DNA of 64,000 nucleotides from assembly GCA_037134655.1 (NCBI GenBank), contig JBAXLR010000001.1, positions 4,294-68,293 of the forward strand, read 5' to 3'. The notes below the pieces were generated by a model, which was not told where the DNA came from, searched no databases, and saw only the letters and a list, made by a program, of their open reading frames with translations. Each line of letters opens with the position of its first letter. Positions within the stretch are counted from its first letter, which is position 1. This document shows, in pieces, positions 29,317 through 45,671 of the stretch. Both the position numbers and the translations under genes were made by a program. Source of the DNA: a bacterium (GTDB lineage: Bacteria; Bdellovibrionota_B; Oligoflexia; Oligoflexales; RGVZ01).

Positions 29317-30219
29317 CTAGCGCGGACGCTCAAGGGATTTAGCCTTAACCGCTGCTAATCTATCGGGCGTATAAGTGCTGACCAATTTTTCGAGTCCTAG
29401 TTTAAAGCTACCATCAGTGCCGTCAATCGAGCGGCGAACCCAAAAACCAACTACGCCAGGGCTGGCCGCGTCCTGGGGTAGACCCTTGAGCATGCCAGAG
29501 AGAAGCCCCTCGGGACTTGAAACTCCGTTAGGAGATGCTAGGGCGTCTCGGTAAGCTTTCTGTAGTCGAGCGAATTTTTCTGGATTCACTTCAAGGGAAT
29601 AGATGGTGGCAAGAAACCATTCAACGTTGTTTTGTAAATAGTCCACATAGATCTGATAAGTCGCAGCCCTAAAACCTACATCCTTTTCACCTGGAATGGC
29701 ATTCTGAACAGCCCAATCAACGAACCTCTTATTGTAGTTACCAAACGACTTGGTGCTATTGAAGTTTATGGCGCCAGGTTTATGCGGGCCCGAACTAAAA
29801 ACAGCGGCTCCGGCTAATTTCTCCAGGGTTTGAAGATCTAAAAGGGACAGCATAAAGCAGGATGTGATCCGCCCACTCATCTCCCAAAATTTTGGCGACA
29901 ACTTGTTCATGTAAAGGCCAGAAGAACAGCCATTTGTAGCATTAGGAAGTTTGGTCCAGGCTCCTTTCATTTTTTCTTCCGGATTTGCGGCCGCTGGCTG
30001 TGGCGCCGCAGCGGGAGCTGCTGCTTTCTTTTTTTCTTCCTCTTTAAGACGCTCTTCTTCCTTTTTCTTTTCTTGTTCTTTTTTCTTCTGTTCTTCGAGT
30101 TTTTGCTTTTCCTTATCAACTAGTTTCTTAAATTCTTTTTTTAAGTCGATGGCAAAGCCAGACTGGGACGCAGTCAATCCTGCTACAAGTAGACTAAAGA
30201 TCAAGACAAAGTGCTTCAC
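29317..30219 (-). CDS. secreted hypothetical protein with Lys/Glu-rich low-complexity region
   Basis: Signal peptide, then a KEKQKLEEQKKKEQEKKKEEERLKEEEKKK tract, then a globular C-terminal domain of unknown family. Confidence 0.45.
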   Translation of the reverse strand: MKHFVLIFSLLVAGLTASQSGFAIDLKKEFKKLVDKEKQKLEEQKKKEQEKKKEEERLKEEEKKKAAAPAAAPQPAAANPEEKMKGAWTKLPNATNGCSSGLYMNKLSPKFWEMSGRITSCFMLSLLDLQTLEKLAGAAVFSSGPHKPGAINFNSTKSFGNYNKRFVDWAVQNAIPGEKDVGFRAATYQIYVDYLQNNVEWFLATIYSLEVNPEKFARLQKAYRDALASPNGVSSPEGLLSGMLKGLPQDAASPGVVGFWVRRSIDGTDGSFKLGLEKLVSTYTPDRLAAVKAKSLERPR

Positions 30220-30449: not shown

Positions 30450-31565
30450 ATGAGTAAGATGACACTTCCAATCACTATTTTAGGCTATAAAAAGTGCGCC
30501 TTCAGCGCTCTTATCGGCATGTTTTATTTTGCCTTCGTCAGCATTCCAGCGCAGGGATCACCCCAGTTCAAACTTTCAAAAAAATGCCCCACCACAGGTC
30601 TTTATCAAGATCACGTTGGCTACTGTCGCCCTATACAGCCATATCAAAATGCTAACGCCCGATTTCATGGCCTATGGAAACTCGAGGATAAAAACATTGC
30701 CCTTCGCCCCGAACAAATCGACCTGGGTCGATTACTATTCTTTGACCCAATACTATCCCACGACCAGAAAATGTCTTGTTCGACCTGCCATGATCCGACA
30801 AAGGCATTCTCGGGTAATCGACCAGGGCTTCGAAATTCTCCGGGACTCATCAATCTTGCCTACAACCCAAAATTTTTCTGGGATGGCCGTGCCACAAGTC
30901 CCGCGGATCAAATCGCTGCGCCACTAACCTCACCTATTGAAATGGGTAATTCTTCTGTGGCTGCTGTCATCACTCGCTTAAACTCAATCGGTGCTTACCG
31001 TAAACTTTTTGCCACAATTCGCCCGGCTGGAAATCAAAACAATGAAATCACCTGGATGGAACTTGTCGCGGCAATTGACAGCTTTCAAAAATCTCTTATC
31101 ACGTTCACAGCCCCTTACGATCACTATATTCTGGGTGATATGAACGCCATGAGACCAGATCAGATTCGGGGTTTGACGCTTTTTCGGTCTTTCGCAACAA
31201 GATGCGCCGAGTGTCATACACCACCACTATTTACGAATCACCAGATTTTGACGGTTGGGTCTCCGGGAGAGTCACGTCCTTTCAAAGTGCCAACCCTACG
31301 GCAGATTGCCAAAACCGCCCCCTACATGCATCGCGGCGCATTTAGCTCGCTGCATGAAGTGGTGCAATTTTACAACGACGGTGGTGGTCGTTCGAATCAG
31401 GGCATCTCGGGCAGCAACACGCACTGGCACGTGCGTCCCATTGGCCTCACCGAAGCAGACGAGGCCGATTTAGTGGCTTTTTTGGATGCCTTGACTGATG
31501 ATAGTTGGAGACCTGAAATACCCAAGAATGTTCCCTCTGGACTAGTGCCAGGACTACTAAATTAA
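30450..31565 (+). CDS. di-haem cytochrome c peroxidase / MauG-family enzyme
   Basis: Two CxxCH sites (CSTCH, CAECH). Also LGRLLFFDPILS, FWDGRA...EMG, KVPTLRQIAKTAPYMHRGAF. Confidence 0.88.
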   Translation: MSKMTLPITILGYKKCAFSALIGMFYFAFVSIPAQGSPQFKLSKKCPTTGLYQDHVGYCRPIQPYQNANARFHGLWKLEDKNIALRPEQIDLGRLLFFDPILSHDQKMSCSTCHDPTKAFSGNRPGLRNSPGLINLAYNPKFFWDGRATSPADQIAAPLTSPIEMGNSSVAAVITRLNSIGAYRKLFATIRPAGNQNNEITWMELVAAIDSFQKSLITFTAPYDHYILGDMNAMRPDQIRGLTLFRSFATRCAECHTPPLFTNHQILTVGSPGESRPFKVPTLRQIAKTAPYMHRGAFSSLHEVVQFYNDGGGRSNQGISGSNTHWHVRPIGLTEADEADLVAFLDALTDDSWRPEIPKNVPSGLVPGLLN

Positions 31566-31578
31566 AGGAGTTTTTTTC

Positions 31579-33000
31579 GTGATGAAGTATTGGTTGTCAT
31601 TGATTTCCTGTCTATTTTTCAGCACCGTCATCATGGGCGCTGAGCACCAGGTCAGATCTGGCGAGAAAATTCAAGAAGCCATCAATCGCGCTAGTCCTGG
31701 AGACTCAATTATCATTGCTCCAGGCGTCTATCATGAAAATCTTGTCATCGATAAAGCCAACATCACCCTAAGAGGTGTTTTAAGTGCTGGCCAGTGGCCC
31801 GTTCTGGACGGTAAAAATAAACTTAATGACGGCATTATTGCCTCAGGCTCCGGGTTTACCGTTGAGTGGCTACACATCAAGAATTATAAAGCTAACGGCG
31901 TTACGACTCAGGCTGCTGACAACGTCATCATGCGTCACTTGATCGTTGAAAAAACTGGCATCTACGGAATTTATCCAACTCTTGGTCGCAATGTGATCAT
32001 TGAAGATAACGTCACATCAGGAATTGCTGATGCTGGAATCTATATCGGCATGTGCCAACACACAGACGTACGCCGCAACGAGGCCTACGACAACGTGGCA
32101 GGAATTGAGGCCGAAAACTCCCATGACGTGCTCATTGAAAATAACTATGTTTATCGCAACACGAGCGGGATTTTGGTCTTCACCCTTCCGGAGCTTCCCA
32201 AAAAATCAAGCGGCAACATCATCGTCAGAAATAACCTGATCTCCAATAACAACCTTATGAACTTCGGAGCCAAGGGCGCCATCGTGGCGAGCGTGCCGCC
32301 GGGATCAGGCGTAATTGTTTTGGCAGCGGATGATGTGATTTTTGAAAATAATATCATAAGGGACAATAGCTTGGCCGGTGTGATCATTGCCCATCACGGC
32401 GCCATTCCACACATGGCAAAAGATCCGCAAGTGGAGCCGAATCCTGACCGGGTTAAAGTTCTAAAGAATTTATTTTACAACAATGGCACTAAAAATTTTT
32501 CAGACCTAGTCATCTGGACCCGCTACTTGATCAAACAAATCATCAGCACTGGAATCCCCGAGGGAGCCGACGAGAGCGTTATCCCACGTGGTGGTGACGT
32601 CGTTGGCACTAAATTTGGCACGGAGCTTTGCATTTATCAGCCTGAGGGCCTAAAACTTCGTGATACGGAGCACTTTGGAAAATGTCCAGATGCATCGCAA
32701 GCCAATCCACCCATTACGATGCTCGTTGACGCAAACAAACTGCCGGAGGTGTCGTCAAAAAATCTTGGCGAGCAAACCTATGCCGCTATTTGCGCAGGGT
32801 GCCACGCGATGAATTACCAACTTATTGGGCCGCCGGTTAAGGAGATTCAAGCAAAATATAAAGATAATCCCCAGGGGATCGTTAATTTTGCAAAGGCGCC
32901 GGTTAAGGTGCGCAGCGGATTTCCCCAAATGCCTCCACAAGCTTACCTAGGTGATGAAAAGCTAAAGGCAGTGGCTGAATACATACTACAGATGAAATAG
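31579..33000 (+). CDS. periplasmic parallel beta-helix repeat protein (NosD-like) fused to a C-terminal class I cytochrome c
   Basis: Repeated ~22-aa I/V-x-N-N motifs (IENNYVYRN, VRNNLISNN, FENNIIRDN). The C-terminal CAGCHAM...GPPVKEIQAKYK...PQMPP resembles c551/c552. It starts 14 nt after the peroxidase gene. Confidence 0.7.
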   Translation: MMKYWLSLISCLFFSTVIMGAEHQVRSGEKIQEAINRASPGDSIIIAPGVYHENLVIDKANITLRGVLSAGQWPVLDGKNKLNDGIIASGSGFTVEWLHIKNYKANGVTTQAADNVIMRHLIVEKTGIYGIYPTLGRNVIIEDNVTSGIADAGIYIGMCQHTDVRRNEAYDNVAGIEAENSHDVLIENNYVYRNTSGILVFTLPELPKKSSGNIIVRNNLISNNNLMNFGAKGAIVASVPPGSGVIVLAADDVIFENNIIRDNSLAGVIIAHHGAIPHMAKDPQVEPNPDRVKVLKNLFYNNGTKNFSDLVIWTRYLIKQIISTGIPEGADESVIPRGGDVVGTKFGTELCIYQPEGLKLRDTEHFGKCPDASQANPPITMLVDANKLPEVSSKNLGEQTYAAICAGCHAMNYQLIGPPVKEIQAKYKDNPQGIVNFAKAPVKVRSGFPQMPPQAYLGDEKLKAVAEYILQMK

Positions 33001-33033: not shown

Positions 33034-33492
33034 TCAAAGGGCCAAGTGCAGAGTTCCAGCCATGGCACCAACCGCAGCGCCATAGACAACGTGAGCAAAA
33101 AGATGCACCAATGCGACGTTGACACCAGTGACACGAAATCTTTGTAATGGATGATGCTCAGCCACAAAAATGACAAGTGCAATTGATGTGACCAGACCTT
33201 GAGCAAACCCACAGAATGCTCCAAGCTGAACATACCTAGCGACGCCGCCACTTGCAATCTCTGGAAACTGACTCCACACAAAGACGTAAATTAACGCAAA
33301 AAGAATGCCACCAGTGGCATGGATTAGAAGGCCAGGCTTGATGGAGTTCTCATATTTTTTGGTCAAAAGGCTGCCAAGGGCTCTGACCATGTCTCCGTTG
33401 GCAAAGCCCTGCCAGTGAAAAAGATAAAGGGTTAAAGTCATTAGACTGGTTGCAGCAACGCCTACTAGACACGTCATGATAAAATCATTCAT
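33034..33492 (-). CDS. hypothetical integral membrane protein
   Basis: 152-aa ORF with four hydrophobic helices. Confidence 0.4.
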   Translation of the reverse strand: MNDFIMTCLVGVAATSLMTLTLYLFHWQGFANGDMVRALGSLLTKKYENSIKPGLLIHATGGILFALIYVFVWSQFPEIASGGVARYVQLGAFCGFAQGLVTSIALVIFVAEHHPLQRFRVTGVNVALVHLFAHVVYGAAVGAMAGTLHLAL

Positions 33493-33613
33493 TATTCACC
33501 TCCCGACTGTCTTATTTACTGGAACCAGTATTTGAAAATTAATCAGTATTTATTTTGTATTATTCATCCGCCCAAAAATCTGTAAAAGCGAACTGACTAG
33601 ATATTTATCCAAT

Positions 33614-33653
33614 AAAAGAACCCCCCGTTGCGTCCAAAGACGCTAAAGGGGGG
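33614..33653 (-). terminator. rho-independent terminator after dabA
   Basis: Minus strand: cccccc-tttagcgtctttggacgcaac-gggggg followed by ttctttt, 38 nt after the dabA stop. Confidence 0.7.
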
Positions 33654-33690
33654 ATGTGATACAACCACAGACTATATTACAGATGCAGAC

Positions 33691-36189
33691 TTAACTAATA
33701 CTCTCGTATAATCCACCGGGCCTTCTGACGTAAACGAGGCCATCATCTCGGTTAATTTGGATGAGATAAAGCCACTCGTTATCCACCAATTCGCGCACAA
33801 CCTGATGCTTTGCAATGATGCCTTCCATAGCCTCTCTTGGCGCCTCGATAAATACACTGAGTCTTAAGGGATCATGGACGAATTTTGATCCATCATGAAC
33901 CGACTGTAGTGGCAAACCAACTCGCAGGTCACCACCGTTGCCTTCCATGACTCCGCACTCGTTGACTACATTATGAAGAACTTTGTTACCTGCTCCATAA
34001 ACGTCAGGCGCCACAGTTGATGCAAAGTACTGCAAATTAATCCAGTTTGTCACCACCATCGGAGCCGTCATAATGAGCTCCAGTGTTGCGAACCCATCAT
34101 CCTTTACATAGTCATAGTCATGTAAGAATGACCGACTTCCTAAGTTCATATCTTTGCTACGAACTCTTGGCGCTACGATAAAACAGGCATTACCAGCCAA
34201 TGCCCACTCGGGACGAACCTCAGACCAATTAATCGCCCTGCGAGCGGCGGGATCAACCATAAATTGGGACCGGGCCACTTGCCGTTCAACTCTTGCTCTT
34301 GAGGCAGCCAAAGCCATGGACTGCTTGATGCGTTCTGCGGCTTTGCGGTGCGCAGTCGGAATCAATTCTTCATCCAGCAAATAAACGTCGTCTGTTACGG
34401 TTTCATGGACAGCTGCCACAAAGTGAGTTTCATTAGGCATTGAGATGCCGTGTTTAGGCAGACCCTCTCTTACCTTTTGATCGTTAAGAAGAGCTACTAA
34501 GACTCTTGCGTTTACGTCACCTGCATGTCCTCCACAAGCACCGCAATCAAGAGCCGAGCCAAATGCATTATTGGTGGTATGACTACCGTGACCAGCTACC
34601 ACCACCAAAGGCGCAAATCCAGAGCGAAGTCCCATATGCTTTAGAATACCCGCAGCTCTGCCAGAAAGGTCTTCCGTACTCAGAGAACCGCCGGCCATCA
34701 GTGAGCAGCTTTCCATATCTGGAGCATATTTTACGGAACTAAATCTTCCAGGAACCTGATGAGGACTTCGTTGGCCCAACATAGCTCTAAAAGTCCTTGT
34801 AAGCATCGGCTTCAGAGCTAGAATCCCAAGCATTTCCACGTAAGCAAACGATGACAATGGAGCTTTTCTAAGCGCCTTAAAATAAGACAACGTGAGCTTC
34901 CTCGTGACTTTACGCGTGACGTCCTTATGACCCTGATCTTTAGAAGTTTCTTTTACCGTCACAGCGGGAGTTAGGAGCACTGGGCAGCGATGCCCAACGT
35001 CTTTTTCGTCGATCTTTTTATAGTCCATGGCCACACCGAAGAAGCCTGCAAATCCGATCGTAGAAATACGTCCATCAGTTGCCTCGATATGCCTTCTGAT
35101 CATCTCAGAGCGAACATCAATACAAAAAGCGATTTGCGCGTCGGCGTTGACTACGGTCGCTTGATTTTGCAAGGGACCAGTATATAGATCGCTGGCAATG
35201 TGCTTCTGATAACTCTCCTCAAAAGCTGCCTGCCACACCAACTCGACCGGGGTTCGATGAGGAACTTCTGAAGAACGCTCCTCAAATTCAAGAACTTGCG
35301 TGCGCCAAGCGTCCATGGCTCCCGGATATTTTGTCTTAATTGACTCATAGACGGCCAACTCATAAACCAATCTCACAGCCAGGAGATCTGCTGCCTCTGC
35401 CCTTGACTCCATGGCATACCCGAGGCTTTTCTGCCACTCAACATACTTGAATTGACTCATCCATCCGAGGACACTGACAGCCATTCTTTCCAAAAGATGA
35501 CGCTGGCACTGAGAGTCAATAATCCCAAGTAGTTCAAAGACCTCGCCGATTACATCAGCTGCTTTTTTGGATTTAAGTTTTGCTGTAACAGCTGAGAGGC
35601 GGGTTAATCCTTGAACCTCTAAACTGCGATCATACTGACTTGCCTCGAGCCAACCCGTCAGAAAATCCTGATCACGCCAAGGAAAGTTGGCCAGAGCCTG
35701 ACGGCTATCAAGATAGGCCGCAGCATAGCGCGATGTTTCTGCAGATAGAACTTTGGCAGTGCTAAGTCCAAAGTTTTTATCGAGGTAATCACTGAGCGAT
35801 CTAAATTTTTGTCTAGCTAATCGCTCAGTCTGGCTAATCTTAAGAAACTCACCAATATGGCTTGGCACGCCAGGCCACTTTTCATGAAGCCTAGTCAATG
35901 AAGACTCGAGCGCAGCCTCTGAAATCTCGCCGTTAGCATAGCGCTCGAGATAGTACTCCACAGGCATGTAGAGACCTTTATGAATAACTTTGTAAAGATC
36001 ACCAATCACTTCCTCAAACTTCTGGCCACGACGAAACCAGAACGGGTTTACAGCTACTGTATTCTGTAGGGGCCAAGAAGGCGTTGAGACGGTTAGAGCC
36101 TCTTCTAGCGTTGCTTTTATTGGCTTCCATGTCTGTTGTTGCTTGCTTTTTGATTTCACTTTATTTTTTTCCATTTTGACGTCAAACAT
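33691..36189 (-). CDS. dabA: DUF2309-family protein, inorganic-carbon transporter subunit DabA
   Basis: 832 aa. ALDCGACGGHAG (Cys/His zinc-site region typical of DUF2309). Immediately downstream of a NuoL-like membrane subunit, which is the canonical DAB pairing. Confidence 0.8.
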   Translation of the reverse strand: MFDVKMEKNKVKSKSKQQQTWKPIKATLEEALTVSTPSWPLQNTVAVNPFWFRRGQKFEEVIGDLYKVIHKGLYMPVEYYLERYANGEISEAALESSLTRLHEKWPGVPSHIGEFLKISQTERLARQKFRSLSDYLDKNFGLSTAKVLSAETSRYAAAYLDSRQALANFPWRDQDFLTGWLEASQYDRSLEVQGLTRLSAVTAKLKSKKAADVIGEVFELLGIIDSQCQRHLLERMAVSVLGWMSQFKYVEWQKSLGYAMESRAEAADLLAVRLVYELAVYESIKTKYPGAMDAWRTQVLEFEERSSEVPHRTPVELVWQAAFEESYQKHIASDLYTGPLQNQATVVNADAQIAFCIDVRSEMIRRHIEATDGRISTIGFAGFFGVAMDYKKIDEKDVGHRCPVLLTPAVTVKETSKDQGHKDVTRKVTRKLTLSYFKALRKAPLSSFAYVEMLGILALKPMLTRTFRAMLGQRSPHQVPGRFSSVKYAPDMESCSLMAGGSLSTEDLSGRAAGILKHMGLRSGFAPLVVVAGHGSHTTNNAFGSALDCGACGGHAGDVNARVLVALLNDQKVREGLPKHGISMPNETHFVAAVHETVTDDVYLLDEELIPTAHRKAAERIKQSMALAASRARVERQVARSQFMVDPAARRAINWSEVRPEWALAGNACFIVAPRVRSKDMNLGSRSFLHDYDYVKDDGFATLELIMTAPMVVTNWINLQYFASTVAPDVYGAGNKVLHNVVNECGVMEGNGGDLRVGLPLQSVHDGSKFVHDPLRLSVFIEAPREAMEGIIAKHQVVRELVDNEWLYLIQINRDDGLVYVRRPGGLYESIS

Positions 36190-36222
36190 AATTGATACTC
36201 CTTCTTCTGCTGGCTAACTGAA

Positions 36223-37725
36223 TTAACTATTCACAGGCCACACGGCAGAAAGAACTTTCGAAGATTTTTGCGTAAAATAATTACCGTTCCACAAACTGAC
36301 ATAGAGTCGCTTAGAAAAAACGTCATTTGGGCGATAAAGCCTTCCCGCTAGATGGAAGCCGATTCCAAATATCACAAGTGAGATTGCGGACACGGCAAAT
36401 ATGGGTGAGCTAATTGTAACGACATCTAGTGTATCTGCTACGATGCTCTGCATACGCGTACCAACGTAGAATTCTATTCCTGTGTAAATAGCAACTGCTA
36501 AAAACATCATGCTTGCAATCGATGTGAAATATTTTAACCGGGAAAATTCACTTTTCGGCAGCACGACAACGCACTGCATCAGAGCAATAATCAATAATCC
36601 TGCATATGCAAAATATGAGAAGTGCGTACCATCTTGATAAACTACGCCGTATCCAAGCACCGTCAAACCAACGACGGTTGCGAGTGCGCTGTACCATGCA
36701 CCAAAAGGAGCCAACTGAAGAGACGACTTTTTGGACTCTCCGACCAGGTCCCCGGTGGATAAGAATGCGTAAGCTTTGTAAAAACTATGGGCGATGATGT
36801 GAAAAAGAGCAATTGAGTATGCGCCGAGACCACACGCAAAGATCATGAGTCCCATCTGACTAATCGTTGAATAAGCGAGTTTTTTCTTGATGTCATTTTG
36901 TGTGATCATCACAAGCGCACCATAGACGGCCGTAACGGCGCCGGCCAATGTTAGCAAAAGATGAGGCAGCTCAACGTGAGTTAGAAGTGGACTTAGACGG
37001 ATAATAAGAAATCCACCAGCATTGATTATGCCTGCATGCATGAGTGCAGATACAGGGGTAGGCGTTTCCATCGTCTCGGGAAGCCAAAAATGAAGTGGAA
37101 ACTGAGCCGATTTAGCGATCGCACCTAACGCCAGGAACACGCCGGCAGATGCAATCATTGATCCGTTGGCGGAGGCAAATGCCTGGTCTGCTGCAAGAGC
37201 GAAAATACGCTCGAATTCAAATGACTTAAAAACATTGTAGCAGATCACAAAGCCTGCCAATAAAAACAAATCTCCTAGGCGACTAATCAAAAACTTCTTA
37301 CGCGCAGCAGCCACGGCCAGCGGTCTTTGAGGATAAAACAACAAGAGGCGGTGTAGACCAATACTAGAAAGACACCAAGCAATGAAGAACATGATTAGGT
37401 TACTGGATAATACCAGTAAGGATACTGCTGATACAGTAAACAAAAGATTTTTGTAGAAGTATCCTTGACGCTCCTCGCCGTCTAAATAGCGTAGAGAGTA
37501 CTGACTAATAACAGCTCCAAGCACTGAGATCATCGCAAAAAGTACCGTCGACAATGCATCAACCTTGAAAGATAAATTCAAATCAAGGCCCGCTACCATA
37601 CCACTTAGTACTGTAAACGTACCCGGCCCATTGACAGCCTCCCAAGCAAACAAAGCCACAGCAAGAACACCCTGAGTGAGTAGCGTCCAGTGGACCAAAC
37701 GTATTTCTAATCCTTGTCGATGCAT
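36223..37725 (-). CDS. dabB: NuoL/MrpA-like proton-conducting membrane subunit DabB
   Basis: About 13 TM helices. WLPETMETPTPVSALMHAGIINAGGFL matches the NADH-quinone oxidoreductase chain 5 / Mrp antiporter core. Start set at the ATG at 37725 (GAGGAGAGGAAG RBS). Confidence 0.8.
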   Translation of the reverse strand: MHRQGLEIRLVHWTLLTQGVLAVALFAWEAVNGPGTFTVLSGMVAGLDLNLSFKVDALSTVLFAMISVLGAVISQYSLRYLDGEERQGYFYKNLLFTVSAVSLLVLSSNLIMFFIAWCLSSIGLHRLLLFYPQRPLAVAAARKKFLISRLGDLFLLAGFVICYNVFKSFEFERIFALAADQAFASANGSMIASAGVFLALGAIAKSAQFPLHFWLPETMETPTPVSALMHAGIINAGGFLIIRLSPLLTHVELPHLLLTLAGAVTAVYGALVMITQNDIKKKLAYSTISQMGLMIFACGLGAYSIALFHIIAHSFYKAYAFLSTGDLVGESKKSSLQLAPFGAWYSALATVVGLTVLGYGVVYQDGTHFSYFAYAGLLIIALMQCVVVLPKSEFSRLKYFTSIASMMFLAVAIYTGIEFYVGTRMQSIVADTLDVVTISSPIFAVSAISLVIFGIGFHLAGRLYRPNDVFSKRLYVSLWNGNYFTQKSSKVLSAVWPVNS

Positions 37726-37834
37726 TGCTTCCTCTCCTCTATTAGAAAAATCTGGAAAATCGATTTTTAAAAAGTAACTGTGGTCAAAAAAGGTTCGCTT
37801 TGTGTTCTGCACTAAGACTCTAGCAGCTGAATTC

Positions 37835-37860
37835 AATATACGCAATGTATATCGTATATT
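37835..37860. promoter_or_regulatory. inverted repeat AATATACG-N10-CGTATATT in the dabB / HTH divergent region (candidate operator)
   Basis: Perfect 8-bp arms at 37835-37842 and 37853-37860. Confidence 0.35.
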
Positions 37861-37895
37861 TTTATTCGTAATTTAGTATTCGGCACTTATAATTC

Positions 37896-37924
37896 TTGAC
37901 TTATGTGTCGTAAGATGCTAATTT
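37896..37924 (+). promoter_or_regulatory. candidate sigma70-type promoter of the HTH gene
   Basis: TTGACT (37896-37901), 17 nt, TAATTT (37919-37924). The AAGGGGG RBS and the ATG at 37946 follow. Confidence 0.3.
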
Positions 37925-37945
37925 TACCCCATAAAGGGGGCAACT

Positions 37946-38239
37946 ATGAGCGAATCAGAAGACACCAAGGAGTGGACTTTTTTGACCAACCACCTTCACG
38001 TCCTACTGGTCATTGCCTCCAGAGGCGACCTCGTTTTGAGAGAAGTTGCAAATTTGGTAGGTATTACTGAGCGAGCTGTTCAAAAGATCGTCATGGAATT
38101 AGAAGACGCTGGGTATTTAATTAGAGAACGAGTAGGTAGGGTCAACCACTACACCGTGGATCTAAATCGCCCTCTTAGGCATACCTTGGAAAGGCATCAT
38201 ACTGTTGGGGCTCTGATTCGTATTCTGCAGAAAAAGTAG
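37946..38239 (+). CDS. small winged-helix (ArsR/MarR-like) transcriptional regulator
   Basis: 97 aa. LREVANLVGITERAVQKIVMELEDAGYLIRER is a typical HTH plus wing. Divergent from dabBA. Confidence 0.6.
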   Translation: MSESEDTKEWTFLTNHLHVLLVIASRGDLVLREVANLVGITERAVQKIVMELEDAGYLIRERVGRVNHYTVDLNRPLRHTLERHHTVGALIRILQKK

Positions 38240-38253
38240 CCGTTGTTACCCTT

Positions 38254-38766
38254 TCAGATGTAGGTGCCGAACGCTAAGCGAAATAGAATCCCAAAACCTG
38301 ATTCTTTCTTGGTGATTGCTCCAGAGACAACCCTTCGGTCAGTACCACCACCCAACCAATCAAATCCGAAGTAAGCGCGCTCATGCCGCCATCTATTACC
38401 AAGTGATGCGCTAATTCCGACATGGTTGGCGGGCGCCTCGCCAGCATAATCAATGCGGCGATAATAGGGCGACCAAGCAACATTAAAACTATTGCCGAGG
38501 AAGTGTCGGAGCTTAATTCCAGCCATATAACCGCGATCAGGAGGATATGAGAAAAAAGAATATGTTGGCGTTTCTCGGTACGCCTCAATGGCAAGGGAAG
38601 GATCGACTATATATCCTAAAGAAAAATTCCCGGTAAATAGACCCAACGCGGAAACCTCAATTCCAGCGCTGAATTTCTTCGAATCAACTTCAGCTGCTTG
38701 AGCGTACGATACATTTGCCAACGTCATGCTTAAAAAAATACAATTGACGAACAAACCAAGACGCAT
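38254..38766 (-). CDS. small outer-membrane beta-barrel protein
   Basis: Start set at the ATG at 38766 (GGAGGA RBS). Signal peptide ...VSYAQA, alternating aromatic beta-strands and terminal F-x-Y-I. The upstream part of track ORF 38254..39153 overlaps the next gene. Confidence 0.55.
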   Translation of the reverse strand: MRLGLFVNCIFLSMTLANVSYAQAAEVDSKKFSAGIEVSALGLFTGNFSLGYIVDPSLAIEAYRETPTYSFFSYPPDRGYMAGIKLRHFLGNSFNVAWSPYYRRIDYAGEAPANHVGISASLGNRWRHERAYFGFDWLGGGTDRRVVSGAITKKESGFGILFRLAFGTYI

Positions 38767-38797
38767 GATTTTCCTCCAATAGATTTTTTTAAAATAC

Positions 38798-39574
38798 TCA
38801 CTCAACATCCAGACGACACATATCGTCAATCCAAACTCCGCCTTTGGCTTGGCATTTTTTAGCTTTTTCCAGAAGTTGTTTGTTGTCCGCTTTACTGGAA
38901 GGTGGTTCGGATTCTGATCGGGCTGGTTTCGCCTGTAAATACCAACCAAAGCTAAAATAGATCGCAGCGTAGTTTCGACCTTTATCCCATAAATCAGCGG
39001 CCGTTTTTTGATCATTAGCCACGTCGTAGATCTCCCAGTACTTATAACTTTCTGCGGTTTGAATGCGTCCGAGACTTCTAATGCCAAAAGTGAAGTAGTA
39101 AAAATCATTTCCTTGCCACCCCACTTCAGGCCCAAGAAGCCAGCCTCGATCATAAAACTCTAGTTCTTGCTTTGGCTGAGCTTCCGTCTCACCGGTTTGT
39201 TGCAGTTCTAAGGAAGTGTAGTAAGTTCCGCCGATCATGCCGAAGTACAATCCTGAGTTATAAACGTGGCGATAAGCCATCTGAATTGAGGTTTTAGTTA
39301 GATTGATTTTACTAGTCTGCGACAAATTTTCGTTGCTTTCACCGGCTGACTCCAAATGAAAGTGAATCTGCTTATTAGACTCGTGCAGGTTATAGTCGTA
39401 GAAATAATAGCTACCGCCAACGGCACCTCCTGAAAAGCCGATACCAAGACCGTGCTGATCGATGCCTTCATTAAACTGAATTTGATTTGGAACGTGCTCT
39501 GCGAAAATCGTAGAACTGACTACAAACAAAAAAGCGCTGAGTGTGATCCTGGTTTCAAAACGAATGCCTCCCAT
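38798..39574 (-). CDS. outer-membrane beta-barrel-like protein with Cys-containing C-terminal tail
   Basis: Start at the ATG at 39574 (GGAGGG RBS). Signal peptide present. Gly/aromatic beta-strand pattern. Tail is KKCQAKGGVWIDDMCRLDVE. Confidence 0.5.
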   Translation of the reverse strand: MGGIRFETRITLSAFLFVVSSTIFAEHVPNQIQFNEGIDQHGLGIGFSGGAVGGSYYFYDYNLHESNKQIHFHLESAGESNENLSQTSKINLTKTSIQMAYRHVYNSGLYFGMIGGTYYTSLELQQTGETEAQPKQELEFYDRGWLLGPEVGWQGNDFYYFTFGIRSLGRIQTAESYKYWEIYDVANDQKTAADLWDKGRNYAAIYFSFGWYLQAKPARSESEPPSSKADNKQLLEKAKKCQAKGGVWIDDMCRLDVE

Positions 39575-39862
39575 TTCCAAAATCCCTCCGATGATGTTTT
39601 TGTCTGATCGGGTGCTGGGGGACATTTCTAAACGACATCGGGCGGAGGATCGGCCTACCGAGGACCACTTTTATTCAATAAAACCAGGATGTTATAAAAT
39701 ATCGCGCGGGCCTGCTATTGCATGATCATGTCGCTGAAAAAGTGATGAAAGTCATGTTTCACTGATCGGTAAAACTCCAAGCAACTGGTTTTGACGTACT
39801 GCTGAGAAAAAATACCATCGTAAATTTAGACATCGCTATGCCAAGCATAGCTCGACAGGGGA

Positions 39863-40017
39863 GATTCGAAATTTCTTCGACAGAGTTGCTTCTTTCGAAT
39901 CCCACAGACTTGGAAAATAAAAACACCACACATCGCCTGTGCAGCACAGGTTTTGGAGGTGAAGATAACTATTTTGTGGCCACATTACTCACCACACCAA
40001 GGTTCATATTTCGAATC
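39863..40017. promoter_or_regulatory. three copies of a TTCGAA-centred 10-mer upstream of the rhodopsin gene (candidate regulator sites)
   Basis: gattcgaaat (39863-39872) is the exact reverse complement of atttcgaatc (40008-40017). ctttcgaatc (39892-39901) matches 9/10. Confidence 0.35.
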
Positions 40018-40140
40018 AGGCACGATGATTTGATTCAGCTTGATTGACCTGAGTGCTTCATCCGTGAGACAATTATGCAGGTTTTTCAGAGAAGTTTTAG
40101 GTGTTTAGATTGCTAATTTAATTTGGAGTGGAGTCAAAGT

Positions 40141-40902
40141 ATGACGGAACTAACAGCAGGGCAGTTTTCGCTCGTTTACAACATGTTTTCTTTAACAATT
40201 GCCAGTATGGGTGCAGCATTCATATTCTTCTTGGCATCACGGTCTAGTGTTGCCCCGAAATACCGCGGCGCACTAACGGTCTCGGCTTTGGTTGTAGCTA
40301 TCGCTTGCTATCACTACTTCCGTATCTTCAATAGCTGGAATGAAGCATTCACCCTAAGCGGCGCCGTCTATGCTCCGTCTGGCAAGCCTTTTAACGACGC
40401 TTACCGCTATGTTGACTGGCTTTTGACTGTTCCATTGCTACTTGTTGAGCTTGTTGCTGTATTGGCTCTACCTAAAAATCAACGCGAAGGTCTATTTGGC
40501 AAGCTAGCAATTGCTGCTTTCCTCATGATTGCACTTGGTTACCCAGGTGAAGTCGCAACTGACAATACGACACGCGCCATCTGGGGCACACTGTCCTCGA
40601 TCCCATTCGTTTACATCCTTATGATCCTTTGGGGCAAATTGGGTGCGGCGATCGAAAGCCAGCCAGGTGAAGCTAAAGTCTACTTGACCAACATTCGCCT
40701 CCTTCTTCTCTTGACCTGGGGCTTCTACCCAATCACCTACATGCTGCCTATGTTCGGCATTGACCCACAATCATCGGTTGTTGGTATTCAGGTTGGATAT
40801 GCTGTCGCTGACGTGCTTGCAAAAGCCTTCTACGGCGTGATGATCTACTGGATCGCCAGAGCTAAGTCTGAAAACGAAGGTTTTGCTGACGCAGCTCACT
40901 GA
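40141..40902 (+). CDS. xanthorhodopsin-clade light-driven proton-pumping rhodopsin
   Basis: RYVDWLLTVPLLLVEL gives the D-T-E motif (D92/T96/E103 from the ATG at 40141). YHYFR provides the His. ADVLAKAFYG provides D224/K228 (Schiff-base Lys). The protein resembles Salinibacter xanthorhodopsin over its whole length as I recall that sequence. GGAGTGGAG RBS. Confidence 0.92.
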   Translation: MTELTAGQFSLVYNMFSLTIASMGAAFIFFLASRSSVAPKYRGALTVSALVVAIACYHYFRIFNSWNEAFTLSGAVYAPSGKPFNDAYRYVDWLLTVPLLLVELVAVLALPKNQREGLFGKLAIAAFLMIALGYPGEVATDNTTRAIWGTLSSIPFVYILMILWGKLGAAIESQPGEAKVYLTNIRLLLLLTWGFYPITYMLPMFGIDPQSSVVGIQVGYAVADVLAKAFYGVMIYWIARAKSENEGFADAAH

Positions 40903-40935
40903 TCCACGTTCTGGTCGCTCTCGCGACCAAACAGT

Positions 40936-42954
40936 CTATTGATAGGCCGCCTCTGCTGAAAAGCGAGGCGGTTTTCTTTTAAGAAATCGTTTCATGGCCG
41001 GGGCGTGGGATGCCGTCAAGGCCCCAACACCCAGAAAAACAACCTGCCAAAGCTGGTTTTGATCACCGGAGCGGGCGTAGATCCAGGCTATGACACCAAT
41101 GCCAAGGATACTTGCTACCGTGTAGCGGAGGCTTTTACTTACGTATTGCTTGGCCGTCCAGTCATTGGCAGCCCTTTGCGCCAGAATAGAATCCCAGCCA
41201 TGCCAGAACGCGAAGAAACAAAAAAACCCAGGCAGTAGGGGTAGCGCCAGTATGGAAGCGGCCAGAACCAGTGTGGCGGGCAAACCAATGACCGCCCTTC
41301 CGAGGGCTTTGCGCTCGTATCGATCTAGATTGCCAGCTGCAAAAATCCCTGCAATAAAAACCAAAACACCGCACCAACGCGCAGCCTCTAAGGTTATTCC
41401 CGTGACAGAAGCCGAGTCTCTAAGGATTAACTGGATAATTGGGCTCGCCTCCTGCCAATGCATGAACACCCCAAACGTTGCGGCAAACAATCCCCACTGC
41501 CAGGCCAAAACGCGACTCCAAAGGGCATAGCCTGAATTTTTGATGGCACGAATCCAATTTGCTTCACCAAAATGATCAGCTGATTGAAACAGGAAAAAAC
41601 CTAGTGCCAGGGGCGGGTACAGCCACCACATGAGAACAAAAAGGATGATGGAGCCAAGGTACAGACCGTAAAATTCGCGGGGTTTACGAGCTACTGGATC
41701 AAGTAGATGATCGAGGCTGCCATGGCCGATTCCAGCAGTTAAAAGACCGATCATTGGAATAATCCATCCGGCGACTCCACCGACGGTCCAATGGAGTGCA
41801 ATGCTTGCAGATACTGCAAAGATAAATGGGTAAAAAACTACAAGACTGCGTAAGAATGGCCCCCAGGGAAGGCCAAAAAATATTTTAATTTCCTCCCCGA
41901 AGCTGGACCTCTCATCAAGGAACGCGAAAATTTTTGAGGGACTATTTGCAGAAAAAAGCACGAGAAAAATCTTGGAGATGAACTCCCCCTGGGTCCTGAT
42001 GATCCTTAGAAGAAGAGCATCATAAACCTGAAACCGAAAATGCCCATATGACGTATTTGCTGAACCAGTCAGATGTCGAAGATTTCTTTGAAAAGAGTAG
42101 CCTGTACTGGCTTTGACCATTCCAGCAGCACTGCCGATTGTCTCAATCACGGAATTGAGTTCTGGTGGGGGGAACTTTGACGCTGCTCCTAGAGTCATGG
42201 GAATAGCGCCTGACTCCACTTTAAGAATCCGAAAATTTGGCAAAGAAAGCTTTCGAGCAATATAATCTCGAAGGATCGACTCACACTCCTCGGTAGTGAT
42301 TCTTTTGGCCGCAAATACGGTGAATTCCACCAAGGCTCGACGTCTGTCAAAAGGCAGGATGTAAACAAAGCGAACCTCGCCCACCTGGTCTAGCCTAAAA
42401 TCCATTAAATCAACCAGGTGAGGATCAAAGTAGTCCTCTTCAGTTTCAAGCTCAAAGCCAAGAAAATACTGCAATAATTCTGGTTTTTGAACCGTCACAG
42501 AATTAAAGATATGCTTTGCCGCGAACGTCTGGCCAGATGTGGTCGTCACAAACGCTTTTTTCCTGGATGACCCCACGTCAGATTTCTCGTTGATCGTTGT
42601 GACAGAATCAACCACTCGATGAAATCGGCTATCATTCTCAAGGCGGTTTTTGATTTTTAAGAGCAGCCGTTCGCCGGGAATTCGCTCGTAGTAATAATCG
42701 CCAAAATCACGAACGACTTTTTGACCCTCAGTCGACGTTATTCGAAATCTTTCCCAGCGATTTTCGATGCAATCCGCGTAACGATGGGGCTTAGACGTTT
42801 TCAGCCGCCAAGAGGCAAAGGTCTTTGACGAAAGGGAATCCGGATCGGGATCGATGATGGCAACCCGCAGATCCCTCGACGGATCATCTGCGAGGATGTC
42901 GGCTTGCATGAGGCCAGCCAGGCCGCCGCCAACGATAATAACGTCAAAATCCAT
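40936..42954 (-). CDS. fusion protein: lycopene beta-cyclase (CrtY-type, N-terminal) + Brp/Blh beta-carotene 15,15'-dioxygenase (C-terminal)
   Basis: N-terminal half: DVIIVGGGLAG, RFVYILPF, GAIPMT, AGMVKASTGYSF, FLDERS. C-terminal ~300 aa is polytopic with GHGSLDH, SADHFGE, FWHGWDS and SHAP (the four-His Brp/Blh pattern). The ATG at 42954 overlaps the upstream stop as ATGA. Confidence 0.8.
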   Translation of the reverse strand: MDFDVIIVGGGLAGLMQADILADDPSRDLRVAIIDPDPDSLSSKTFASWRLKTSKPHRYADCIENRWERFRITSTEGQKVVRDFGDYYYERIPGERLLLKIKNRLENDSRFHRVVDSVTTINEKSDVGSSRKKAFVTTTSGQTFAAKHIFNSVTVQKPELLQYFLGFELETEEDYFDPHLVDLMDFRLDQVGEVRFVYILPFDRRRALVEFTVFAAKRITTEECESILRDYIARKLSLPNFRILKVESGAIPMTLGAASKFPPPELNSVIETIGSAAGMVKASTGYSFQRNLRHLTGSANTSYGHFRFQVYDALLLRIIRTQGEFISKIFLVLFSANSPSKIFAFLDERSSFGEEIKIFFGLPWGPFLRSLVVFYPFIFAVSASIALHWTVGGVAGWIIPMIGLLTAGIGHGSLDHLLDPVARKPREFYGLYLGSIILFVLMWWLYPPLALGFFLFQSADHFGEANWIRAIKNSGYALWSRVLAWQWGLFAATFGVFMHWQEASPIIQLILRDSASVTGITLEAARWCGVLVFIAGIFAAGNLDRYERKALGRAVIGLPATLVLAASILALPLLPGFFCFFAFWHGWDSILAQRAANDWTAKQYVSKSLRYTVASILGIGVIAWIYARSGDQNQLWQVVFLGVGALTASHAPAMKRFLKRKPPRFSAEAAYQ
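40947..40980 (+). terminator. rho-independent terminator of the rhodopsin gene
   Basis: ccgcctc (40947-40953) pairs with gaggcgg (40965-40971), then ttttctttt. It lies inside the 3' end of the convergent crtY-blh ORF. Confidence 0.7.
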
Positions 42955-44111
42955 CAAATCGGCGACCACTTGATCACCCGACCCTTCCATTCATAAGAGC
43001 CGCGCAAGCTCGTTCTGAGAGACTTGTAAGCAGCTATATTGAATAGTAACAAACTGAGGGGATGTAAAAGCACATCACGAAGTGGCATCTTAAATAATTT
43101 TGCCGTCAACATTCGGCTTACTAAAACCAACCCTAGAGAAATCAGCGCAAATTGCGGGCGAAAAAAATAGCCCCACAATGGAAACATAAAAACAAGATTC
43201 ACCAGAATGACCACACACCCAAAAACTAGTGGCGTGCCTCCCCCAATCATGACCAAATTTTTTGAGAAGCCGGCTAGCGTAGCCCGCCAATCAGAATACA
43301 TGGCCACACTGATATCAGTTGCTGCCAAAACAGGCTGCACACCACGACCTGTCACCCGCTGAATCTGACGAGCTAGTGCAACGTCTTCAAGTGGTGTCAC
43401 ACCAAGCCTTTGGTGCCCTCCACTAGCATAATAATCAGGCTTGAATAACGCAATCCACTGTCCGTTAGCCATTTGCATTGACTTGAAAGGCAGACGCCAC
43501 GTGCAAAATAGCGGTAATGACATCAGCAAAGGAAGATGCATGATCCAAGGAATCAACAGACGCTCTAGTAATCCTTCACACGACTGTGCTGGTAAAGCTG
43601 TTAGACCAGCCATTTTTTCTCTCGCGCCAGGCTTCATCATCAAATTGACGGTATTCCGAATAGCCGTGGGTGATGGCCTAACATCTGCATCACAAAAGAT
43701 CAAAATCTCACCCTTTGCCACTGCAGCAAGCTGGGCACAAGCATGGGCTTTGCCTGAAAGTTGGGTCGCTTCCGACCATGGAATTCCCGCTACGATACGC
43801 ACGGGGAATGGAGCATCTGACATTAGATCTGTAGCGATTTTTGCTGAATGATCTCTAGATCCGTCATCTAATATAATGACTTCAAGGGGCTGATAGGTCG
43901 AATTCAGTAAAGCTGGCAGAAGATGTCGTAGGTTATTCGCCTCGTCACGCACAGGCACGAGAAAACTTACCAGTGGTTTTTCGGTGGTGGTAACCTCAGA
44001 TTGTCCCATCTTTGCAGCCAACGCTGCATTAAGGATGACCATTAAAGTCGTGACACAACACGCCAGTAAACAAAACCAACAGACCACATCAATCAGCAAC
44101 GCTGCATTCAT
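42954..44111 (-). CDS. family-2 glycosyltransferase (carotenoid glycosyltransferase CruC-like by context)
   Basis: FLVPVRDE, ILDDGSRD, FCDADV (GT2 DxD) and C-terminal TM helices. ATGA overlaps on both sides within the carotenoid operon. Confidence 0.65.
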   Translation of the reverse strand: MNAALLIDVVCWFCLLACCVTTLMVILNAALAAKMGQSEVTTTEKPLVSFLVPVRDEANNLRHLLPALLNSTYQPLEVIILDDGSRDHSAKIATDLMSDAPFPVRIVAGIPWSEATQLSGKAHACAQLAAVAKGEILIFCDADVRPSPTAIRNTVNLMMKPGAREKMAGLTALPAQSCEGLLERLLIPWIMHLPLLMSLPLFCTWRLPFKSMQMANGQWIALFKPDYYASGGHQRLGVTPLEDVALARQIQRVTGRGVQPVLAATDISVAMYSDWRATLAGFSKNLVMIGGGTPLVFGCVVILVNLVFMFPLWGYFFRPQFALISLGLVLVSRMLTAKLFKMPLRDVLLHPLSLLLFNIAAYKSLRTSLRGSYEWKGRVIKWSPI

Positions 44112-44782
44112 CAGCCACCACCTGCTAATAAAGCTTGGGGTGCGCTGATTGAGGCTAGATCCAAAAGCCTCGTAACTTCGGCTTCCAAAGTCTTGTGATC
44201 GATATTTTTACTGAGACTATCAATCGGCTGACCCGCATAAATGAAAACGGTTGGTTTCTCCTGGGTCATAGGCTCAATGTGAAGCCCTAGTGGCACATAC
44301 TGAACGCGACCAACTATCTTTGCCAAAGTTTCAATGCCACGACGAAACCCAAGCGGTCTTTGACGCAGAGGCGAGATTTCACCTTGGGGGAAATAGGTCA
44401 GAGTCCGGTATGGATTTGCAGCCGCCAGATCACGAAACTGGATGAAGGCTCTACGCACGCTTACTGGATTACCAGGTTCCAACCCAAAACATCCGATTTT
44501 ACGTAAAATGGGAAACTTCTTTAGCTCGCTTTCGAGCATCAAAGAATAGATACCCGATCCAGGACGAAGCCGATTTTGGACTTCAAAGCAAAAAAATCCG
44601 TCCCACCAGCTGATGTGATTAGGAACCAATATGACAGGTAACTTCGGATCAAGCTGACCCAGTGCGGCGTCCAAATCAAAATGGATGGATGCAAAAGCTC
44701 TACGGTACTTCCACTGTAAGTACCTATCCCAAAACCACCTTACATTGTCATTATGCCTGGGTGACACGGGTTCGAAATCCAA
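44111..44782 (-). CDS. PlsC-family acyltransferase (carotenoid glycoside acyltransferase CruD-like by context)
   Basis: NHISWWDG is the HxxxxD acyltransferase motif. 223 aa, within the carotenoid operon. Confidence 0.6.
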   Translation of the reverse strand: MDFEPVSPRHNDNVRWFWDRYLQWKYRRAFASIHFDLDAALGQLDPKLPVILVPNHISWWDGFFCFEVQNRLRPGSGIYSLMLESELKKFPILRKIGCFGLEPGNPVSVRRAFIQFRDLAAANPYRTLTYFPQGEISPLRQRPLGFRRGIETLAKIVGRVQYVPLGLHIEPMTQEKPTVFIYAGQPIDSLSKNIDHKTLEAEVTRLLDLASISAPQALLAGGG

Positions 44783-45671
44783 GCGGTAATGTGCCTCGGC
44801 TCAAGCCAAATATATAGAGCACTAGCAGTGTCAATGCCGTGAGAATCACGGGCGACCAGGCTGCACCGGCTATGGATAACCCAACCGGAAGGAACAAGTT
44901 TAGGAAGTAAAATTTTATCGGCCATGAACGCTCGAAGCGATGTCCATAGTTACCGAGCCCTAGTGCTTCAAAACTGAGGAATATTAAAAATCCAGTGAGT
45001 AACCAACCTAGAAGATTTCTGACCGCTACGCCGAGGAAAAAGACTCCAGATTCTTCCCAGATCCAATATGGAGTCAACTGGCTCATGGCTGGTTCAAGTG
45101 TGAAATCCCAAGCAATGAGCAATAAAGACGCTACTGCAATTCGCCCTAAAGAAAATCGCAATTGATCGAGCCTTCCTTGAAAGACCCTCCGAGGTTTGCG
45201 TCCAATAATCTGAGTTGCAAGGAGATGACAGCAAAGGGTCATGCAAAACCAGCTGATCGGAATCAGCACTGGGACTTTATCGCCAAGCTGCCAACCGAGA
45301 AGGCTCGTATACGAGTATTTGCCAAAAGGTATACCGTAACTGGTACCACCAAATTCCATAAAAAAACTGATCAAAAACGCTGAGAAAAAGTAGGCGAGCC
45401 AGCGCCAGCCCAAAACCTTATGGGCAGCCTGTATGCACAGCCAAAAACAAAGAAGAATCTGCAATCTCGCAAAAAGCGGGTATGATATGGCATAGATTGG
45501 CGGTGACCAAGGAAAACGCGCAAACAACTCTGGATGCAGCGTAAACGTGGCGTATCCAAAGATTGAAATCGCATTGATGAAAAGCAAAGCCCACATTGGA
45601 GAAAAGAATAGCACATGAGTCCCTTGGAGCAAGGACATTTGGGGGCCACCAGAATCCCAGTCAGGGATCAT
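44751..45671 (-). CDS. membrane carotenoid biosynthesis protein (CruF-like carotenoid 1,2-hydratase family)
   Basis: Polytopic. GIPFGKYSYT and AWDFTLEPAM...YWIWEE resemble the conserved PF04240-type motifs as I remember them. The true start may be an internal Met. Confidence 0.55.
   Translation of the reverse strand: MIPDWDSGGPQMSLLQGTHVLFFSPMWALLFINAISIFGYATFTLHPELFARFPWSPPIYAISYPLFARLQILLCFWLCIQAAHKVLGWRWLAYFFSAFLISFFMEFGGTSYGIPFGKYSYTSLLGWQLGDKVPVLIPISWFCMTLCCHLLATQIIGRKPRRVFQGRLDQLRFSLGRIAVASLLLIAWDFTLEPAMSQLTPYWIWEESGVFFLGVAVRNLLGWLLTGFLIFLSFEALGLGNYGHRFERSWPIKFYFLNLFLPVGLSIAGAAWSPVILTALTLLVLYIFGLSRGTLPLGFRTRVTQA

Follow-up and report, generated by a model that had tools for sequence, protein, structure and literature searches.

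The closest described counterpart of the inorganic-carbon pump considered here is DAB2 of Halothiobacillus neapolitanus (PDB 9rd0; bioRxiv 10.64898/2026.03.13.711513 and 10.1101/476713), which is encoded by a two-gene dabB-dabA operon. The principle of a vectorial carbonic anhydrase, with the elbow/finger of DabA wedged into DabB, is also found in DAB1 of Thermocrinis albus (bioRxiv 10.64898/2026.05.01.722082), which has a third, NuoM-like subunit, DabC. A role for DAB/MpsAB proteins has been proposed outside autotrophs as well (bioRxiv 10.1101/476713; PMC6689103, PMC8552792), and MpsAB, the DabBA homologue of the non-autotroph Staphylococcus aureus, provides the dissolved inorganic carbon that carboxylations need and can replace carbonic anhydrase (PMC6689103, PMC8552792, PMC8567241). 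Here we examined a 64,000-nt stretch of DNA, referred to as the window (assembly GCA_037134655.1, contig JBAXLR010000001.1, positions 4,294-68,293 of the forward strand; GTDB lineage Bacteria; Bdellovibrionota_B; Oligoflexia; Oligoflexales; RGVZ01), in which a dabBA operon with a divergent regulator gene is followed by a gene for a xanthorhodopsin (XR), a predicted light-driven proton pump, whose start lies 2.4 kb from that of dabB (Table 1). The initial annotation had read this co-location as a possible module leading from light via the proton-motive force to bicarbonate, with the caution that proximity is weak evidence. Comparison with close relatives bears out the caution, and not the module. 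The reading that we consider likely is that dabBA and XR are two self-contained accessory modules standing side by side in a variable chromosomal stretch, without forming a dedicated light-to-bicarbonate device; their adjacency would be due to both occupying a hotspot of recombination and indels.

Compared with the described systems, the window operon resembles DAB2 most closely. It has the same two-gene order, its DabA aligns end to end with that of DAB2, and the zinc ligands, the Asp-Arg dyad, the finger Glu, the Leu in place of Gln, the Lys/Asp pair and the non-Glu residue at position 151 are all shared. Unlike H. neapolitanus, however, the host of the window is a probable heterotroph without the context of a CO2-concentrating mechanism, and the cassette, known here from sequence, varies between strains. 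The physiological role that we propose is the one described for MpsAB, although MpsAB is essential in air in S. aureus and has been argued to be sodium-linked, whereas the window dab genes are dispensable at the population level and closest to DAB2. In contrast to T. albus DAB1, no second PF00361 gene stands next to dabBA. With regard to the rhodopsin, the window shares with Salinibacter ruber XR and its salinixanthin (PDB 3DDL) the DTE motif, a Gly at the carotenoid position and adjacent crtW, cruF, glycosyltransferase and acyltransferase genes; it differs in its Oligoflexia-related host, in the fusion of crtY with blh (684 aa) and in an island that apparently moves between related lineages.

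Presence and absence of the two modules among related loci

The window was compared with 26 related loci (L001-L026), most of which were obtained through contigs encoding the matched proteins, and whose flanks were seen up to 10 kb, or less on short contigs (the L023 contig has 3.6 kb only). An exact look-up of the window DabA returned no record; a near-identical protein with a shorter called start (P0121) led to L014 (Logan SRR12676975), an independent assembly that is 99.99% identical to the window over 8.2 kb, from XR through dabA to the DUF6789 gene. The XR-dabA arrangement is therefore real and not an assembly chimera.

The identical XR protein (P0001) was found on 31 contigs, and the four long contexts among them (L007-L010) come from four different samples of the same species, with 89-97% DNA identity to the window. 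All four are without the dab cassette. Their gene order runs from DUF6789 directly to bb1, one of two small open reading frames (ORFs), then to bb2 where present, XR, the carotenoid genes, ORF201 and the S8 peptidase gene, and their alignment to the window ends at 33484 and restarts at 38254 (L007, L010) or 39602 (L008, L009). About 104 unrelated bp replace the cassette in L007. The reciprocal state was seen in the sister lineages L001, L015, L016, L021 and L022 (DabA 87-88% and DNA about 74% identical), which are without exactly the part corresponding to about 38240-50260 of the window and have the order DUF6789, dabA, dabB, regulator, ORF201 and S8 peptidase, the regulator and ORF201 being only about 32-50 bp apart. 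Besides the window and L014, L017 (DabA 84%) is the only other lineage with both modules, XR and dab lying within 1.8 kb of each other. Its junction differs from that of the window, since ORF201 stands between XR and the regulator and the bb genes are missing.

Moreover, more distant relatives carry one module or the other. No rhodopsin gene was found in the sampled flanks of the Dab loci L018, L019 and L026 (DabA identity 68%, 65% and 58%, respectively) or of L002-L006 and L023 (46-49%), the named ones among the latter being metagenome-assembled genomes (MAGs) of Bacteriovorax or Oligoflexia. Likewise, dab genes were absent from the sampled flanks of the XR loci L011-L013 (XR identity 89%), L020 (79%), L024 (75%) and L025 (73%, an Oligoflexia MAG), all of which have carotenoid genes. 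By a rough count, the other module was present within up to 10 kb in about two of 13 Dab-bearing and about two of eight XR-bearing lineages; since the DabA searches gave six loci in genome contigs and three in metagenome contigs, this sample of lineages is small. Conserved synteny in relatives, by which the initial annotation had proposed to judge the module, was thus not found: strains of the same species do without dab, and sister lineages do without XR.

The two modules also differ in their divergence. When the window is compared with L017, DNA identity amounts to 88.0% over 6.5 kb for the XR island (about 40040-50030 compared with L017:228-6707), to 76.0% for the dab-regulator part and to 70-76% for the other backbone. 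Against the L015 group, dab is 74.6% and the backbone 70-77% identical. Because the divergence is unequal (88% versus 76%), dab and XR have not been inherited or transferred as one unit. The identity of dab is in line with that of the backbone in both comparisons, and dabBA with its regulator therefore behaves as vertically inherited backbone of the clade that has been deleted in some strains, as judged from these alignments. The higher identity of the XR island suggests that the whole island was recently exchanged horizontally between related Oligoflexia-like lineages.

The XR island is found at three different junctions, represented by the window and L007, by L017 and by L011, where it lies directly between the NosD-cytochrome and aconitase genes. 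Further indels nearby include a 300-aa ORF (29317-30219) present only in L009, extra ORFs in L008 and L009, and a 4-kb insertion in L015. Taken together, the gene content of these relatives identifies the interval between NosD-cytochrome/DUF6789 and ORF201/S8 peptidase/aconitase as a probable gene-content hotspot. On its left side (30450-33000, plus strand) lies a conserved gene pair, which borders the variable region in every close relative; one member encodes a di-haem cytochrome c peroxidase (CCP_MauG), the other a NosD-like beta-helix protein that ends in a cytochrome c domain. In the XR-less loci L015 (2817-3598 and 14660-15808) and L018 (20133-21245), the interval holds a DUF6036 and CopG toxin-antitoxin-like pair and baeRF (eRF1-like) genes, a cargo that fits a hotspot for accessory or defence-type genes.

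These comparisons bear directly on the proposal that XR and DabBA form a dedicated light-driven bicarbonate module, held together by selection for anaplerotic fixation in a photoheterotroph. Both proteins do act on the proton gradient, XR generating and DAB2 consuming it, and their genes are close together in the window and L014 as well as in L017. Light-stimulated anaplerotic CO2 fixation has, moreover, been described for rhodopsin-bearing marine bacteria (e.g. PMC9040609, PMC3587595). However, each module is kept alone at this locus in strains of the same species and in sister lineages, adjacency was seen in none of the more distant Dab or XR loci sampled, and the two have diverged unequally. 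They also have separate strands, promoters and terminator, and the candidate dab operator is absent near XR (see below). A literature search for DabA together with rhodopsin gave only unrelated papers. We therefore hold a dedicated module to be improbable. The proposal does share with the work on proteorhodopsin-bearing marine bacteria the idea that rhodopsin energy may support the assimilation of bicarbonate in photoheterotrophs. To our knowledge, however, the marine cases involve metabolic regulation and bicarbonate transporters other than DabBA, and linkage of a rhodopsin to an inorganic-carbon pump is no defining feature of them.

The predicted pump, its regulator and the rhodopsin island

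DabA matched PF10070/DUF2309 over profile positions 3-747 of 747 (Pfam, E 3.9e-233), and its top match in the PDB was DabA2 of H. neapolitanus (9rd0_A, residues 28-824, E 2.8e-139). DabB matched DabB2 (9rd0_B, E 6.7e-64) above all NuoL, NdhF and MrpA chains. In DAB2, mutagenesis has shown that C351, D353, R355, H524, C539 and E444 of DabA and K235 and D185 of DabB are required (bioRxiv 10.64898/2026.03.13.711513). Alignment to the 9rd0 chains shows that every functionally tested DAB2 residue is kept in the window proteins. The zinc ligands C351, H524 and C539 correspond to C356, H534 and C549, the Asp-Arg dyad D353-R355 to D358-R360, and the Glu of the membrane-inserted finger/elbow motif, E444, to E452, while the ion pair K235/D185 of DabB corresponds to K205/D152, plus R149. 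The water network of DabA (S356, H585 and D590) is represented by S361, H595 and D600, the Leu replacing the Gln of beta-carbonic anhydrases (L658) by L664, and the non-Glu residue at DabB position 151 (I151) by C118. Since no dabC was found, that is, no second PF00361 gene adjoins dabBA in the ORF list and Pfam results for the window, the architecture is that of two-subunit DAB2 rather than of the DAB1 heterotrimer. The family match, the 9rd0 matches and the conserved residues all agree with the initial annotation, which had taken DabBA for a cation-gradient-coupled vectorial carbonic anhydrase; we predict, more specifically, a vectorial carbonic anhydrase of the DAB2 type.

A different function, in ion or pH homeostasis, or a sodium-coupled one as argued for MpsAB, might be considered instead of bicarbonate supply. 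DabB does belong to an Mrp/NuoL antiporter-like superfamily, and MpsAB has been argued to draw on a sodium gradient and to build up membrane potential (PMC6689103). Nevertheless, the intact beta-carbonic anhydrase zinc site with its Asp-Arg dyad points to CO2 hydration chemistry, DAB2 worked without sodium and failed to complement a sodium-transporter mutant (bioRxiv 10.64898/2026.03.13.711513), and the window proteins are closest to DabA2 and DabB2. This explanation thus seems unlikely, and we take the pump to be coupled to protons rather than to sodium. Two related proteins, P0158 (1339 aa) and P0231 (1205 aa), are natural DabB-DabA fusions with PF00361 and PF10070 in one polypeptide (in P0158 also PF00662), and such single chains fit an obligate 1:1 complex.

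The gene layout given by the initial annotation was correct throughout: dabB precedes dabA on the same strand with a gap of 33 nt, the two share a single terminator whose hairpin lies 25 nt beyond the dabA stop, a helix-turn-helix gene is divergent from them, and the rhodopsin gene lies at the distance given above. The dabB ORF could extend to a TTG start (36223-37845). However, the ATG at 37725 is preceded by the ribosome-binding site AGGAGAGG and is therefore taken as the start of a 500-aa protein; the longer form is probably not used. Neither the dabBA terminator nor the dabB promoter was picked up by a generic promoter and terminator scan; we infer them from folding and conservation, respectively.

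The divergent gene encodes a 97-aa winged-helix protein that gave only marginal matches to MarR, ArsR and CodY winged-helix structures in the PDB (E >= 0.006), from which no specific family follows. Its homologue adjoins dabB divergently in L001, L015-L017 and L021-L022 (88-92% amino-acid identity), L018 (83%) and L019 (78%), so that the pairing is kept down to 65% DabA identity; in L004 (47%; DabA 49%) it is near dab, but not beside it. The palindrome AATATACG-N10-CGTATATT at 37835-37860, a perfect inverted repeat of 8+8 nt, overlaps the -35 element of dabB and is the best-conserved block of the regulator-dabB intergenic alignment, which includes L001, L015, L017, L018 and L019 (DabA 65-100%). 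It occurs once in the 64-kb window even when three mismatches are allowed, with no copy near XR or the crt genes. The palindrome is thus a candidate operator for a DAB regulator not characterised before, and the 97-aa protein is plausibly a local repressor or activator of dabBA. Rfam gave no riboswitch in the region. In more distant relatives a LysR-type regulator flanks dabBA (L026, 12599-13492; L018, 4445-7998), and the neighbourhood in L018 also holds TerC and a SulP-family (Sulfate_transp) transporter. The latter is possibly a bicarbonate transporter of the BicA kind, in which case the neighbourhood for inorganic-carbon uptake would be larger.

The rhodopsin matched the xanthorhodopsin of Salinibacter best in the PDB (3DDL, E 3.8e-88), followed by Gloeobacter rhodopsin (6NWD) and Kin4B8 (7YTB). 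It is a seven-helix rhodopsin with the DTE motif D92/T96/E103 and the Schiff-base lysine K228, features that support its description in the initial annotation as a light-driven proton pump. G133 lies inside an LGYPGEV motif that is identical in the alignment to that of Salinibacter XR; we take this residue to be the equivalent of Gly156, the carotenoid-binding position there, where a small side chain leaves the site open for the carotenoid. A full set of retinal and ketocarotenoid genes follows (40936-50028) and accompanies XR also in L007-L013, L017, L020, L024 and L025. Its crtW, cruF, glycosyltransferase and acyltransferase genes presumably match what a salinixanthin-like ketocarotenoid acyl-glycoside requires. 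The protein is accordingly classed, from its residues and gene neighbours, as a putative XR-type proton pump with an antenna pathway. L007-L013, L017 and L020 also have the crtY-blh fusion (659-684 aa), while L024 (426 aa) and L025 (301 aa) have a stand-alone Blh; such a fusion would couple the formation of beta-carotene to the release of retinal.

It is also evident that the two modules are organised separately. They lie on opposite strands, and the two intervening genes, bb1 and bb2, are opposite to XR. The elements of the promoter-like site of XR are conserved upstream of XR in the dab-less loci L007 and L011 as well as in L017. Given the opposite strands, the terminator of dab, the promoter of XR and the absence of the operator near XR, the modules are probably regulated separately and are predicted to share neither a transcription unit nor a regulatory site. 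Read-through into XR from the regulator promoter was considered for L017 and is unlikely, since the conserved promoter of XR itself is retained at that locus.

The bb1 and bb2 products are putative secreted proteins, which the initial annotation had read as beta-barrels. They matched no Pfam or NCBIfam family, and a single-sequence AlphaFold model of bb1 (pLDDT 32) was uninformative on its fold. Both genes are absent in L011, L017 and L020, and in L008 and L009 bb2 is absent and bb1 is represented by a 57% identical allele. Only in the window species do they border the XR island, and their presence there varies by strain. Elsewhere in the window, the sole RNA gene is a transfer-messenger RNA (2915-3269, plus strand; Rfam, 142 bits; tag GNEYALAA), which fills an ORF-free gap at 2420-3525.

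Table 1. Coordinates of the dab and XR modules, their flanking genes and their putative regulatory sites in the window
Feature	Position	Strand	Remarks
DUF6789 gene, left backbone flank	33034-33492	-	adjoins dabA in L001, L015-17 and L021-22; adjoins bb1 in the dab-less L007-L010
dab cassette	33485-38253		dabA, dabB and regulator; 4.77-kb presence/absence polymorphism
putative dabBA intrinsic terminator	33614-33653	-	GC-rich compound hairpin (33653-33621), then U-tract UUCUUUUAUU; -22.2 kcal/mol, z = -3.1 versus shuffles
dabA	33691-36189	-	832 aa; predicted cytoplasmic beta-carbonic-anhydrase-like subunit of a DAB2-type inorganic-carbon pump
dabB	36223-37725	-	500 aa; NuoL-like membrane subunit, predicted proton-conducting; PF00361 (Proton_antipo_M), PF00662 (Proton_antipo_N)
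putative dabB promoter	37817-37860	-	sigma-70-like pair: -35 TTGCGT (37845-37840), 17-nt spacer, -10 TAGAGT (37822-37817)
putative regulator promoter	37896-37901; 37919-37924	+	TTGACT; TGn and TAATTT; conserved pair facing the regulator gene
divergent winged-helix regulator (MarR_2/ArsR-like)	37946-38239	+	97 aa; Pfam MarR_2, HTH_24
XR island	38240-50260 (approx.)		bb1, bb2, XR and carotenoid genes; 12-kb presence/absence polymorphism
bb1	38254-38766	-	170 aa; signal-peptide-like N-terminus, aromatic/Gly-rich
bb2	38798-39574	-	258 aa; signal-peptide-like N-terminus, aromatic/Gly-rich
XR promoter-like site	40044-40073	+	TTGACC, 18 nt, TG-n-GACAAT; promoter scan
xanthorhodopsin (XR)	40141-40902	+	253 aa; PF01036; predicted light-driven proton pump
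crtY-blh fusion	40936-42990	-	684 aa; CrtY-type lycopene cyclase (PF05834) and Blh beta-carotene 15,15'-dioxygenase (PF15461)
GT2/cruC-like (glycosyltransferase)	42954-44111	-	Pfam/NCBIfam
acyltransferase/cruD-like	44111-44782	-	Pfam/NCBIfam
cruF	44751-45671	-	Pfam/NCBIfam
crtW	45615-46376	+	Pfam/NCBIfam
crtB	46547-47446	-	Pfam/NCBIfam
crtI	47388-48950	-	Pfam/NCBIfam
crtE	48937-50028	-	Pfam/NCBIfam
ORF201, right backbone flank	50262-50867	+	201 aa, no family; follows the regulator directly in XR-less relatives; identity 94-98% in L007-L010

Host and proposed function

Domain searches (Pfam and NCBIfam) of the window ORFs of at least 150 aa revealed no RuBisCO, carboxysome, carbonic anhydrase or carboxylase domain, as the initial annotation had already noted for RuBisCO and carboxysome genes, and no genes of the Calvin-Benson-Bassham (CBB) cycle were found in the 64 kb. 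The flanks of the related Dab loci, up to 10 kb, were also free of RuBisCO, carboxysome and CBB genes. The nearest named relatives of the window threonyl-tRNA synthetase are from Oligoflexus sp. (66-68%), the relatives of XR are named in NCBI nr as Oligoflexia or Pseudobdellovibrionaceae, and those of DabA at 45-49% include Bacteriovorax, Oligoflexales and Pseudobacteriovorax. The window also encodes many peptidases (M13, S8, S33) and signalling proteins. The host is thus probably an uncultured Oligoflexia-related heterotroph, for which we infer a freshwater habitat; rhodopsin-bearing Oligoflexia MAGs are known from earlier work (PMC7701988). Some public MAG labels among the relatives look wrong, such as 'uncultured Polynucleobacter sp.' for L001 (CAYOEM010000012.1) and 'Methylotenera sp.', 'Moraxellaceae' and 'Chitinophagaceae' among those for P0032, P0241 and P0295, where NCBI nr indicates Oligoflexia, Pseudobdellovibrionaceae or Oligoflexus.

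DABs were discovered as components of the CO2-concentrating mechanisms of chemolithoautotrophs (bioRxiv 10.1101/476713), and the window DabBA could by analogy be part of such an autotrophic mechanism, with the RuBisCO and carboxysome genes located elsewhere in the genome. However, autotrophy genes are lacking in the window and in the flanks of the related Dab loci, the cassette is dispensable within the species, the peptidase-rich, Oligoflexia-related lineage looks heterotrophic, and many DabA-bearing genomes are without RuBisCO (bioRxiv 10.1101/476713). We give this explanation hardly any credence. As no RuBisCO or carboxysome genes are nearby, provision of bicarbonate for carboxylases is, by analogy with MpsAB, the most likely role of the window DabBA.

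In the mechanism that we propose, CO2 would diffuse into the cell and be hydrated at the buried zinc site of DabA (C356, H534 and C549, with the D358-R360 dyad). An inward flow of protons through DabB (K205, D152/R149), completed by the finger motif of DabA (E452), would make the hydration one-way, and bicarbonate would thereby accumulate in the cytoplasm. There it would be used by biotin carboxylases and in other carboxylations, whether anaplerotic or biosynthetic, a role like that of MpsAB in staphylococci. Expression of dabBA would be controlled by the divergent winged-helix protein at the palindrome overlapping the dabB -35 element. XR, expressed from its own promoter and equipped with genes for retinal and a salinixanthin-like antenna, would pump protons out in the light. 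The sole connection between the two modules would then be the proton-motive force, which is common to every consumer of it; such a generic energetic link is plausible and is not specific to the dab-XR pair.

Several points weigh against two independent modules that have met in a hotspot. No integrase, transposase or tRNA gene is found nearby, and the ends of the dab cassette have no flanking repeats; a search for flanking direct or inverted repeats of both cassettes gave a sole match of 10 nt, which is at chance level. These results lend no support to a site-specific mobile element, and exchange presumably took place by homologous recombination through the flanks, an assumption on our part. 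The comparison was made at the level of the locus, and strains without one module there may carry it elsewhere. The assignment of the operator and the role of the regulator derive from conservation only. Furthermore, the modules are adjacent in two lineages (the window with L014, and L017) whose junctions differ, and selection for linkage, instead of shared use of a hotspot, could account for this. In a reading that builds on this last point, the juxtaposition would be selected in the minority of strains having both modules, and the region would serve as an accessory photoheterotrophy island in which light-driven proton-motive force raises bicarbonate accumulation by DabBA and anaplerotic fixation. 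If this is true, light would bring these Oligoflexia-related bacteria a mixotrophic advantage in surface water poor in CO2, and rhodopsin phototrophy would be tied mechanistically to inorganic-carbon uptake. We see only a slim chance of this, and favour two self-contained modules.

The lesson is thus one of caution, as a tempting case of guilt by association, a proton pump beside a proton consumer, dissolves when close relatives are compared. With regard to the pump family, the well-conserved DAB2-type pump of a probable heterotroph is further evidence for a role of DABs in heterotrophic carboxylation. The small winged-helix protein and its palindrome offer a testable candidate for the regulation of DABs, and the strain-level polymorphism of dab suggests that the pump confers a conditional benefit, for example at low CO2.

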